Source: an uncultured Enterobacterales bacterium (lineage in GTDB: Bacteria; Myxococcota_A; UBA796; UBA2385). From it: a stretch of 23,241 bases of DNA. Positions 6,057 to 9,296 of this stretch are shown here, in pieces. Positions within the stretch are counted from its first letter, which is position 1; every line of letters begins with the position of its first letter. The stretch lies in NCBI GenBank assembly GCA_964464515.1, contig CAYXGP010000132.1:1-23241 (forward strand), read 5' to 3'. Made by a program: the position numbers and the translations under genes. The notes below the pieces were generated by a model, which worked only from the letters and a program-made list of their open reading frames with translations, made no database searches and had not been told where the DNA came from.

Positions 6057-6958
6057 CTGAGCCTCCGCGGGGTCACGTCCAGACTCGGGCCTACCACGAA
6101 GATCTGGCGAGAAGGGAGCTCGACGGCGAAGAGTCGGCCAGTCTGGTCGATCTCCCCCGAGAGGCAGATGCGATTGGGTGTGAGCACGTGGGGTGCATGG
6201 CTGGAGAGCCCTGAGCGTCGCGCGGGGTTCCTGGTGTGACCGCTGACCACGACGCGGTCCCAGCTCGGGTCGGAGCTACCGCAGAGGTCCTTGTCTCGGA
6301 TGGCGGGCGGAAGCCACTCGTGCACGTCGGGGAGCAGCTTGCGGGCCAGGCGGTCGCGCTGCGGACCCAGCGGCCCGGTCTGCATCCCGGCATGAACGAA
6401 CAGATGCGCGCCCGTGTCGAAGAACCAGGGGAGCGAGCGCAGAAACGCCTGGTGGTGCGCGGGCATCGAGGTCGCGAGATCCTCTGCGGAGTGAGCGCCG
6501 TAGGCTGCGGCGGTGCCCAACCCCAGGTTCCAGTAGCGACTGCGCCAGCGCGCGTACCAGACCGGATCGGGCGCGGTGCCGGGCCAGCCCAGCGCGCGGA
6601 GGCAGGCCAGATCGTGGTTTCCGATGATCGGAACGAAGCGGTCTTTGCGCTCGGCCCGCAGCTCGATCAGCAGGTCGAGCAGGCCAGGGATGTCCGGTCC
6701 GTTGTCGACGTAGTCCCCGAGCGTCACGAGGTTCCAGCGGTCGCCGTGGATCTGGTCGAGCCGCCGGATCAGCGCCCGCAGGTGGTCGGGGTGGCCGTGC
6801 AGGTCTGCGACCGCCACCCAGGTCTCTTCGGCGGACCTTCTACAGACCTGCTCAGCCGCCGAGGTGTCGCGCTCTTCGCTCACGGTCAGGAGCCGAGCCG
6901 CGACCAATGCATCGATCGTCGTGCCACCCTCAACCTTCAGTTCGTCGCTCTGGAACAT
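6053..6958 (-). CDS. PPP-family metallophosphoesterase, second tandem copy
   Basis: Motifs VAVADLHGHP (GDxHG), LGDYVDNGPD (GDxxDxG), IIGNHD (GNHD/E) and FVHAGM/SGHT. I prefer the ATG at 6958 (MFQSDELKV...) over the upstream GTG at 7018 in the ORF track. The extension would overlap the ARH-like remnant. Confidence 0.75.
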   Translation of the reverse strand: MFQSDELKVEGGTTIDALVAARLLTVSEERDTSAAEQVCRRSAEETWVAVADLHGHPDHLRALIRRLDQIHGDRWNLVTLGDYVDNGPDIPGLLDLLIELRAERKDRFVPIIGNHDLACLRALGWPGTAPDPVWYARWRSRYWNLGLGTAAAYGAHSAEDLATSMPAHHQAFLRSLPWFFDTGAHLFVHAGMQTGPLGPQRDRLARKLLPDVHEWLPPAIRDKDLCGSSDPSWDRVVVSGHTRNPARRSGLSSHAPHVLTPNRICLSGEIDQTGRLFAVELPSRQIFVVGPSLDVTPRRLR

Positions 6959-7178
6959 GCGTAACGGCTTCCAGCAGGGAGCGACCCTCGAGGACCTCTC
7001 GCAGGATCCGGCACGCACCCACGGCCGCCTCTGCGGCGTTCGGGTGTCCGTGGGTGATCATCGCCGAGACGCGCACTGCGTCCAGAAGATCTTCGCCGCT
7101 GAACAACACAGGCAGGGGACAGATGCGCATGACAGCGCCGCAGCCCTCAGAGCTGCGCACCTCGCCGGAGCGCCACAC
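6930..7178 (-). pseudogene. ADP-ribosylglycohydrolase (ARH/DraG family)-like remnant, apparently truncated or frameshifted
   Basis: An 82-aa ORF reading ...SSEGCGAVMRICPLPVLFSGEDLLDAVRVSAMITHGHPNAAEAAVGACRILREVL. This matches the central ARH family motifs (GNGaaMRiaPigl ... THxHPea..ga.a.A.ai). A TGA lies immediately upstream in this frame. The expected N-terminal GDALG/TDDT region and C-terminal GGDTDT region are not found intact. The flanking sequence changes frame and the ORF stops 29 nt inside the downstream phosphoesterase start region. Extent is uncertain. Confidence 0.4.
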
Positions 7179-7568
7179 CCGACGTCAGCAGGTCGGCATC
7201 GGGATGCGTGGGAACAAACGCCGCAGGATCGCCTTGCAGCGGGACGCGGTCATCGACCACATCACCGGCCGTCGGGCGCGGGTCCCGCGATGTGCTGGCG
7301 GGTGGGGTAGAGTGATCACCGAGTCTGCGTTGGAAGGGCAGGAGGTCGCCATCGCCCTCCGAGCGCGGGAGCAGTGGCCGAAGTGGATGCGCTTCCTCCG
7401 CCTCTATCGATGACCTCACTGATGAGCGCAATACGAGCGAAACCGACCCGACACAAGATGGTTCAGACACGAATGCTCTCGACAGGGCGATGGTCACAGC
7501 TCCGAGTACCCAACCCGAGCGGGCCGCCATGAAGACACACATGGCGAGCCCTGAAGCGGGGAGGCTAC

Positions 7569-9296
7569 TCAACGCGCCGCGTGTGGCTTCCCGCGACCAC
7601 GCCGACCTCCATGACCGCCATGTGCAGGCGCAGGCTTGCGGGCGGGGATCTGGTCTGCGGAGTCGTCATCGATCAGCTTGTCCACGCCGACGTGAACCCG
7701 CGAGTCGGTCGGCACGACGATCACCTTCTTCGCACCTTGCCCCAGCTTGGCCTGCTCCAGCGCGATGTAGGCGGCTCCACCCTCGCCGGACAGGATCGCA
7801 GCGAGCGCGCGCAGGCGCTCCTCCTCTGCCTCCCGCTCCGCCTGCGCGATGAGCCGGATGGCCTCGGCCTGCCCCTGCGCCTTCTCCACCTCGGCCTCAC
7901 GCGCCAGTCGGGCGGCGGCCAGCCGCTTCGTCCGCTCGTTCTGGATCTCCAGCGCGATCAGCGCCGCTCGCGCCGTCTCGTTCTCGACCTGTCCGTCGAT
8001 GAGGAGGCGCTCGCTGGCCAGCTTGGCCTCGTCCTGCTGGCGCTTGGTGTAGATCCGGACGTTGGTCTTGATGGCCTCGGCCAGGTGCTTCTGGATCTCC
8101 TTGTCGTCGGGCGAGATGCCCTCGACGTCGATGCCGAACACCTCCAGTCCGTTCTCGGCGAACACCCGGGAGGGCCGCGCGCCGAACAGGGCTACCTTCA
8201 CCAGCGACGCAGCGCCGGAGTGCAGACTCTCGAACGTGTGCCGTGCTGCCTCCTCCCGGATCTCGGCCGAGAGCGTCTGTGCGATGAACCCGACGAAGTC
8301 CTTGAGCGCGAACAGCTTCTCCGGCGCTGCTGCATTGACGACGAATCGCCACCGGTAGGTGACGTCGATCGTCAGCGTGGCGTTGTCCGCCGTGCGAACC
8401 CGGAGCTGATCGCGGATGAAGTCGGGCCCCAGGCTGAGCTTTGCCAGCCGCAGCACGTTCGGCCGGACCGGCACGCCGCCGCTGATGTGCAGCACTCGCG
8501 GGCGCTCGTGCGGTCCCAGGAAGACCGTCTTCGGCCCGAACTCCACTCGGGTCTCATCGCCCGTGAACAGGCAGATCGCCTCGCGGTGCTCCAGATCGAG
8601 GACCACAGCCTCGTGTTCGGTCGCGCGCTGGCGGGGGTGGGCCGAGAGCACCCGGCCGCCGCTGGTGCCCTTCTGCGCCGCGAAGCCCAGGGCCTCGGCT
8701 TCCTCGCCGGTCAGCTTCTTGCGCCACAGGGACTCGTTGTGTTGCAGGAAGATGTCGTCGGGACCGCGGACGAGCCGCACAGCGCCGGTGTCATCGTTCT
8801 GCACATAGACGCCGTCGTTCTCGGACAGCGACAGGTTCTTGCGCTGCTCGAGGACGAGGATGTCCTTGTGTGGGATGAACTTGCGCGGGCCCGCGATGAC
8901 CAGCTCGGTGCCAGGTGGGATCACCGTCTCGGGATCGAGCGGATGGGGGCAGGTCTTCTCCGCGCGGACAAGCAGCGAGTCGTCACAGGTCAGCACGAAC
9001 TCGCTCTGGATCTCCTTTCCCTGCAGGCACTCGCCTGGGCGAAGGGAGAAGACGCAGGGACCCACGCGGACCTCACGCTCACCCTCGATGATGTCGCCGA
9101 GCTCGGCGCTCCAGGGATTGAGGACCACCGCGAACTGGCCGTCGAACAGGCGGATCTTGCGGTGCTTTCCCTGCAGCTCCTGGTGGGAGTCGAGCTGGAG
9201 CCGGCAAGGCCCCTCGTGCAGGTTGATGGTGCCCGTGTTTCGATCCTGCACGAAGCAGTAGTCGAAGCGGTTGAGCAGGATGGTGTCGGTGGACAT
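7569..9296 (-). CDS. Major vault protein (MVP) homolog: shortened N-terminal repeat region plus shoulder (SPFH-like) domain plus cap-helix
   Basis: 575 aa. Compared with eukaryotic MVP recalled from memory, there is strong collinear similarity across the shoulder domain. [32 protein letters not shown] corresponds to [76 protein letters not shown] corresponds to [64 protein letters not shown] corresponds to [20 protein letters not shown]. MVP-repeat-like segments include ...[23 protein letters not shown]..., cf. [21 protein letters not shown]. This is followed by an A/E/R-rich coiled-coil (cap-helix). The protein is about 300 aa shorter than eukaryotic MVP, so it has fewer N-terminal repeats. 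A GGAGG sits 7 nt upstream of the ATG. Confidence 0.8.
   Translation of the reverse strand: [575 protein letters not shown]

Follow-up and report, generated by a model that had tools for sequence, protein, structure and literature searches.

The window analyzed here, the 23,241 nucleotides of contig CAYXGP010000132.1 (assembly GCA_964464515.1, from an uncultured Enterobacterales bacterium), carries on its minus strand a major vault protein (MVP) homologue followed by two calcineurin-like phosphoesterases, PE1 and PE2. Between the MVP stop and the start of PE1 lie 610 nt, which contain a short relic of an ADP-ribosylglycohydrolase domain (ARG, also called ARH). Judging from its sequence and from those of its relatives, it is very likely that this feature is the non-functional remnant of an ARG domain that once lay directly upstream of PE1, most probably as the N-terminal half of a single ARG-phosphoesterase protein. 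An earlier note on this DNA had proposed that the gene was either a pseudogene or an intact ARH hidden by sequencing frameshifts. The first option stands, whereas the second fails on the identity of independent assemblies, on the lack of homopolymers, and on a shortage of DNA in the region.

The open reading frame (ORF) at 6930-7178 of the minus strand, which encodes 82 aa and is where central ARH motifs had been noticed before, matches positions 112-187 of the 287 of PF03747 (ADP_ribosyl_GH) with an E-value of 1.1e-14 and 55 bits. It aligns with residues ~120-188 of ARHs of solved structure, including 2cwc and DraG 2woe. The 82-aa fragment returned nothing in a word-indexed homologue search, and an exhaustive phmmer search was needed instead: among 1.84 billion representative proteins it gave 152 matches, the best with an E-value of 1.2e-18. 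The top matches are unusually long proteins (450-620 aa), in which the matching block lies at residues ~110-185. We built a family-specific ARG hidden Markov model (HMM) from 14 intact relatives, which the fragment matches with E-values between 7e-32 and 8.5e-29. A six-frame scan of the whole 23-kb window with this model gave one ARG match only, at 7181-6951 (model positions 111-188, E-value 8.5e-29). A frameshift-tolerant alignment of profile to DNA begins at 7175 and continues through the block with 120 bits, and the codon-usage log-odds over the relic are positive in its own frame only. At such levels of similarity, far beyond chance, the relic is a genuine piece of an ARG/ARH domain. It is only a piece: instead of a complete domain of ~280 residues in one ORF, we found 82 aa bounded by TGA at both ends, covering about a quarter of the PF03747 domain. 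The features of the locus, from the MVP side to PE2, are the following.

9348-9427, minus strand: S-adenosylmethionine (SAM)-II riboswitch aptamer (RF00521, 61.8 bits).
7569-9296, minus strand: MVP homologue of the short bacterial type, 575 aa (PF11978 MVP_shoulder, E-value 1.4e-23; Vault_3, Vault_4, Band_7).
7188-7568, no strand assigned: spacer of 381 nt from the MVP stop to the relic, with undetectable ARH similarity.
7123-7413, plus strand: antisense ORF of 96 aa, or of 119 aa in one assembly (7054-7413), from public gene calls in assemblies L003-L008.
7185-7187, minus strand: TGA in the frame of the relic, just 5' of it (three-frame translation).
6951-7181, minus strand: ARG/ARH domain relic, a central block (GCGAVMR ... 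THGHPNA) at family-model positions 111-188 (PF03747 and family HMM).
6930-6963, minus strand: zone where the frame of the relic ends and a frame switch is needed to enter PE1 (translation; frames of the tblastn matches).
6815-6958, minus strand: N-terminal leader of PE1, 48 codons (phmmer and tblastn alignments).
6053-6958, minus strand: PE1, an intact calcineurin-like (PPP/ApaH-type) phosphoesterase (PF00149, E-value 7e-10).
5073-6056, minus strand: PE2, a second calcineurin-like phosphoesterase (PF00149, E-value 5e-9).

The closest intact relatives of the relic are the proteins P0001 (559 aa), P0008 (574 aa), and P0018 (547 aa), all fusions of PF03747 with a calcineurin-like PF00149 domain, so that the existence of ARH-phosphoesterase fusions among relatives, raised in the earlier note, is now established. 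In others (P0006, P0007, P0011, and P0015) the ARG is fused to a phosphatase of the DSP/rhodanese type. When P0008 was compared with the window by tblastn, its residues 109-176 matched 7181-6978 and its residues 295-572 matched PE1 at 6874-6059 (60% identity, E-value 9e-118). The two matches are colinear (same strand, same order) and lie in different frames. The phosphoesterase domain of PE1 shares 64% identity with that of P0008, 48% with P0001, and 50% with P0018, and the value for P0008 equals that of the best stand-alone homologues with known context. The colinearity of the block and PE1 with P0008, together with these identities of 48-64%, indicates that the fragment is what remains of the ARG half of a fusion or of a tightly linked pair.

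Gene callers place the start of PE1 at the ATG at 6958, which gives it a 48-codon leader that its stand-alone homologues lack. The phmmer alignments of PE1 begin at residue 33 with the fusions and at residues 39-48 with the stand-alone homologues. The last ~14 residues of the leader align with the linker between the ARG and the phosphoesterase in the fusions; the rest has no significant similarity to anything, and its comparison with the ARG HMM is not significant. The stand-alone homologues (~255-275 aa; e.g., P0153, P0160, and P0161) are 55-72% identical to PE1 over the whole phosphoesterase domain, and a six-frame scan for ARG at three of their loci (L009-L011) was negative. Partial ARG domains were found elsewhere. 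Locus L021 (6178-6522) retains only model positions 201-316, and L022 (2552-2845) and L023 (1076-1369) retain only positions 237-339, all of them in the reading frame of the phosphoesterase domain. Erosion of the ARG in ARG-phosphoesterase fusions thus appears to recur. In L022 and L023, an unrelated zinc-ribbon-like gene overlaps the ARG remnant.

The in-frame TGA that had been reported just upstream is indeed present at 7185-7187, two codons 5' of the GTG at 7178. Detectable homology starts at 7181, and the HMM envelope stops short of this TGA with no extension across it. At the other end, the frame of the relic closes at the TGA at 6930-6932, within the reading frame of PE1 (open from 7018); this agrees with the earlier observation that the ORF ends where the extension of PE1 begins. 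The N- and C-terminal ARH motifs, already described as missing, are absent from every frame searched. The N-terminal metal-binding region (GDAxG ... W-T-D-D-T in the clade) is absent from all frames of 7182-7600, and the C-terminal metal-binding motif, G-D-S-D-S/T, gave no match. The block ends at 6951 and the phosphoesterase domain starts at ~6820, which leaves 44 codons between them, as opposed to 120-136 in the intact fusions. This interval is ~230-275 nt shorter than in intact proteins, and ~75-90 codons, among them the DGGW and GDSDS regions, are physically gone.

Candidate remnants of the C-terminal part did not withstand scrutiny. The string EGGTTIDALVAARLL of the PE1 leader had been described as faintly reminiscent of the GGDTDT motif. 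Its best ungapped placement (7.2 bits) is at model position 196, in the helix right after the block; at the GDSDS motif it scores 4.4 bits, and 30% of shuffled peptides equal its best score. We do not retain this assignment. The string 'PPKRPGWRS' at 6834-6808 was considered as the DGGWRS motif and rejected, since its frame overlaps the homologous start of the domain (WVAVADLHGH) and its tblastn E-value is 0.42.

The spacer upstream of the relic has no detectable similarity to the missing N-terminus. Frameshift-tolerant alignment of 7182-7600, on both strands and with the N-terminal part or the whole of the model, gave 11-14 bits, compared with 13-15 +/- 2 bits for dinucleotide shuffles. No ORF in the spacer (7188-7568) has a match in Pfam. 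The description of this DNA as lower in GC and spacer-like was accurate: GC content is 0.63-0.65 in 7300-7750 and 0.66-0.70 nearby, there is no coding potential in any frame of 7430-7620, and 7430-7568 looks non-coding. A weak and ambiguous coding signal, in frame 0 of the minus strand or on the plus strand, is present in 7180-7430. Folding gives a GC-rich hairpin ~20 nt past the MVP stop, neither a sigma-70-like promoter nor an intrinsic terminator turned up in 6700-7700, and the relic region has no meaningful repeats.

Several strings of the spacer, picked by eye, were tried as N-terminal remnants and given up because the frameshift-aware score of 7182-7600 is at the level of shuffles on either strand: 'VMW|DDRVPL' (~7262), 'PTQTR*SLYPTR' (7363-7298), 'LGLGTRSCDHRPVE' (7534-7478), and the GDSDS-like 'GGSASTSATAPAL' (7399-7325). 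The high frame-2 GC content at third codon positions (GC3) in 7180-7440 was also considered, as an upstream extension of the ARH frame, and rejected, since the GC pattern and the codon log-odds fit the plus strand or frame 0 of the minus strand equally weakly. The antisense ORF of 96 or 119 aa has no match in Pfam and has its third codon positions in common with frame 2 of the minus strand, the frame of the relic. It is probably a shadow ORF due to high GC3.

Sequencing or assembly errors could in principle have produced such a picture. We found six assemblies (L003-L008; three from JGI samples, one from ENA, and two from Logan), coming from at least three samples and three pipelines, that are 100% identical to the window over 6800-7700 (901 nt). 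There is no homopolymer of five or more bases in 6800-7600. The poly-G runs at the start of the window, on which the suspicion of errors had been founded, do exist (10 G at 15-24 and 9 G at 31-39) and have no bearing on the relic region. The identity of the six assemblies and the lack of homopolymers make frameshifts from sequencing or assembly untenable. A 62.5-kb JGI contig (L003) aligns with the window from position 2 and spans both poly-G runs. Homology, a premature stop, a disrupted frame, and missing segments are thus found together and are reproducible in independent data, which is what one expects of a pseudogene or domain relic.

The manner in which the domain was lost can be approached from the state of the block. 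It is 45-58% identical to intact ARGs, which share 47-59% with one another. It keeps 21 of the 28 positions that are conserved in at least 80% of the family, where intact members keep 79-100%, and 11 of the 13 invariant positions, the other two being changed; it has no internal stop. Its GC3 is 0.71, compared with 0.83-0.88 in MVP, PE1, and PE2 (binomial p = 3e-4). The lower GC3 and the losses at conserved sites are what relaxed constraint leaves behind in a limited time. So limited a relaxation would be insufficient to erase, by point mutation, the strongly conserved N-terminal motifs LGLALGDAYGRPLEF, WTDDTHM, and DPLTPSTAPGNTC, which are the best conserved of the family. Hence, we infer that the flanks of the block were removed or replaced by rearrangement, through deletion or replacement rather than slow point-mutational decay. 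The earlier description of the gene as decaying is right in that it is a relic; erosion by point mutation is the less likely part, the block being hardly more diverged from intact homologues than these are from each other.

Other explanations were weighed against this one. That the likeness to ARH is a chance similarity in non-coding DNA might be argued from the shortness of the matching stretch (~77 codons), but we attach no probability to it, given E-values of 1e-14 with Pfam, 1e-18 among 1.8 billion proteins, and 1e-28 with the family model, and given that the block sits exactly where the ARG is in the fusion homologues of PE1. An intact ARH or ARH-phosphoesterase fusion masked by errors is scarcely conceivable. 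The poly-G runs and the presence of three overlapping ORFs in successive frames would suit it, but besides the identical assemblies and the lack of homopolymers, no N- or C-terminal ARH motif appears even when frameshifts are freely allowed, and the interval from the block to the phosphoesterase domain is too short. Frames 0, 2, and 1 hold these three ORFs in head-to-tail overlap, every step being a +1 shift, and this brings up programmed recoding: by read-through of the TGA, two +1 frameshifts, or both, the ORF at 7572-7147, the block, and PE1 would be joined in a protein of ~506 aa with a novel, divergent ARH-like N-terminal domain, a summed length near that of the fusions. We consider this highly improbable. 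Neither junction has a visible slippery or prfB-like site (by inspection, without a dedicated scan), a recoded protein would be short of ~80 residues of the fold as well as of both metal-binding motifs, the ORF at 7572-7147 has little coding potential and no Pfam homologues, and the GC3 of the block is significantly relaxed.

A more serious rival keeps the full-length ARG in place and lets its N-terminal (7188-7541) and C-terminal regions decay by point mutations and small indels, with no large upstream deletion. The 381 nt of the spacer are the length expected for the N-terminal region, 7180-7430 is weakly coding-like, and motif-like strings can be spotted by eye, such as LHGGPLGLGTRSCDHRPVESIR compared with GALLGLALGDAYGRSLEFIR at 7534-7469 (tblastn E-value 5-8). 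Yet we regard this course of events as unlikely. The motif-like matches are at noise level (11-14 bits, with shuffles at 13-15 +/- 2). The lost N-terminal motifs are the best conserved ones, and yet the central block retains 75% of its conserved positions and no internal stop; uniform neutral decay would not wipe out one part and spare the other. In addition, the 75-90 downstream codons are missing whatever happened upstream. Some points do weigh against a remnant shaped by deletion or replacement. We found no close relative of the genome, the most similar PE1 being 72% identical and the most similar MVP 64%, which means that the ancestral state is drawn from distant homologues; a fusion and two adjacent genes would be indistinguishable as precursors. 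Moreover, the spacer has about the length of a normal ARG N-terminus (about 110-125 codons), and its weak coding-like signal in 7180-7430 suits decay in place as well as replacement.

Under the deletion or replacement of the flanks, which we prefer, an ancestral ARG domain would have stood directly upstream of PE1, and the removal of what surrounded its center would have left the central ~77 codons. The relic would have no enzymatic role and would at most be transcribed as an untranslated leader of the PE1 mRNA. PE1 would now be translated alone, from the ATG at 6958 or a nearby start, with a 48-residue leader whose end may derive from the old inter-domain linker. The catalytic motifs of both phosphoesterases appear intact, and PE1 and PE2 presumably work as stand-alone enzymes, as the many PE1 homologues without an ARG may do. 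In PE1, the metal-binding motifs DLHGH, GDYVDNG, GNHD, HAG, and GHT align with those of the homologues. PE2 resembles the NCBIfam models Pnkp-phosphatase, PrpE, and ApaH, all under their cut-offs, and no homologue of it was found in any other locus that we fetched. The PE1 stop and the GTG start of PE2 overlap as GTGA (6053-6056), which suggests translational coupling of the two genes.

The relic on its own is of little weight, being a dead domain, and mainly calls for a correction of annotation: PE1 is best described as a stand-alone phosphoesterase with a vestigial leader, and neither the 82-aa ORF nor the antisense 96-aa call should be treated as a gene. It further illustrates the shedding of domains in ARG-phosphatase conflict systems, for which two other loci hold different partial ARG pieces.

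MVP, the relic, PE1, and PE2 lie compactly on the same strand, and the earlier note spoke of an MVP-linked system. We identified 74 MVP homologues with E-values of at most 1e-30, the non-identical ones being 39-64% identical. None of the eight other MVP loci (52-65% MVP identity where reported) contains a homologue of ARG, PE1, or PE2, and none of the ARG-phosphoesterase or PE1-homologue loci examined contains an MVP. A search for orthologous loci that started from MVP and covered plasmids, the protein database, and collections of genomes and metagenomes gave no close relative and none with an ARG or phosphoesterase gene. The adjacency is unique in our sample; rather than a system, it may be a juxtaposition specific to the lineage. 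With an inactive hydrolase and a pairing that does not recur in the other loci examined, there is no basis for reading the locus as a system of MVP and ADP-ribosylhydrolase, and the premise of the note is weak.

The MVP gene itself has a different association. The SAM-II riboswitch of the window is a full-length match (61.8 bits, for a gathering score of 36) located 52 nt upstream of the MVP ATG. Elsewhere, SAM-I riboswitches (RF00162) of 68 bits, which exceed the Rfam threshold, lie immediately upstream of MVP in loci L015 (784-889) and L017 (3830-3930). Sub-threshold SAM-I matches were found at the equivalent place in L016 (1177-1303; 36 bits) and in L001 (186-292; 32 bits), the latter ahead of an operon that includes MVP. 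The presence of two unrelated riboswitch classes ahead of the same family suggests that the expression of bacterial MVP homologues is controlled by SAM. The neighborhood reinforces the link of MVP with SAM and methionine salvage: a gene for an MTA/SAH nucleosidase (PNP_UDP_1) adjoins MVP in L018 (4033-4794), L001 (1339-2061), and L002 (1125-1883), and the three nucleosidase genes score 97 and 78 bits, above the TIGR01704 cut-off of 73.8, and 73.3 bits, just below it. This points to S-adenosylmethionine, and not ADP-ribose, as the recurrent theme near short bacterial MVPs. We found no mention of an association between SAM riboswitches and MVP in the literature searched, and we consider it a more interesting lead than the relic. 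In other MVP neighborhoods (L024 4513-5810; L018 1409-2182; L025 476-2376) we found a divergent TrmB-type regulator (in two cases), a NUDIX hydrolase, and a DUF7192-bearing AAA ATPase of the MoxR type.

One may still imagine a single operon under the SAM-II riboswitch, made up of MVP, the ARG-PE1 gene as it once was, and PE2, in which a homologue of the vault shell was once coupled to a module that removes ADP-ribose and processes nucleotides, the ARG being shed later as the phosphoesterases sufficed. We find this unlikely. The eukaryotic vault carries PARP4, and TEP1 is reportedly an NADase of the eukaryotic vault (2026 preprints). If true, the operon would parallel, in a prokaryote, the vault of eukaryotes, and the relic would record the coupling.

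Farther away in the window, part of a gene for an FG-GAP/MopE copper-binding repeat protein is duplicated (20827-22353 and 15567-17093; ~1.5 kb, 77.6% identity). A ParE toxin and Unstab_antitox antitoxin pair lies at ~14850-15460 (L004 3843-4443), between a 424-aa gene and the FG-GAP gene, and its ParE gene was called in one assembly and left uncalled in another.

Among known systems, no PADLOC model fits MVP, PE1, PE2, or the ARG-phosphoesterase fusion. When compared with ARHs of the DraG/ARH3 type (PF03747; 2woe, 2cwc), the relic shares the central helices with the motifs G-x-G-A-x-M-R and T-H-x-H-P, and differs by the loss of both di-metal-binding motif regions and of an intact ORF. The stand-alone PE1 homologues represent the same enzyme occurring without an ARG; unlike PE1, they have neither the 48-residue leader nor an upstream ARG remnant.

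The closest resemblance is to the ARG-centric conflict systems, in which the ARG has no partner transferase (Iyer, Burroughs, Anantharaman, and Aravind 2022, Viruses 14:1977, PMC9503650, section 3.8). In these systems, just over 55% of the neighborhoods couple the ARG to a phosphatase, usually of the rhodanese-phosphatase type and sometimes calcineurin-like, and the accessories are variable (ARPP, a rapidly evolving REase, WYL/Nudix regulators, chaperones). The authors proposed that the ARG strips virus-added ADP-ribose off host macromolecules and that the ADP-ribose thus set free is processed by the phosphatase (PMC9503650). Similarly, the closest relatives of the relic are ARGs fused to rhodanese/DSP-type or calcineurin-like phosphatases; the P0008 gene is followed by ARPP-1 (PF20208), and the stand-alone PE1 homologue P0161 is located between REase-ARP (PF22558) and ARPP-1, with a WYL gene adjoining. 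The P0001 gene abuts a SIR2_2 gene. In the window, the coupling of ARG and phosphatase is visible in the position of the relic, directly upstream of PE1 and on the same strand. The Pfam list of the locus shows neither an ART nor a SIR2 domain (a weak test, as it holds precomputed matches only), in keeping with the lack of a coupled transferase or sirtuin. The locus departs from these systems in that its ARG is dead, no active core enzyme being present, and in its partners, since PE2 (Metallophos, not ARPP) and the MVP homologue are both unmentioned in PMC9503650. No ARPP, REase-ARP, WYL, Nudix, or chaperone (vWA, SseB, TY-Chap) was found in the precomputed Pfam list for the L003/L004 genes (window 2-19296), and as accessories are variable (PMC9503650), this absence is not disqualifying.

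The window locus would thus be a case in which the first step of the scheme of Iyer et al. 2022, that of the ARG, has been lost. From the features of a functional ARG it retains the profile match only, and on this match the relic is a decayed member of the known ARG clade. Modules are gained or lost between related genomes in these systems (PMC9503650), and the recurrent partial loss of the ARG is consistent with this published view of quick module gain and loss.

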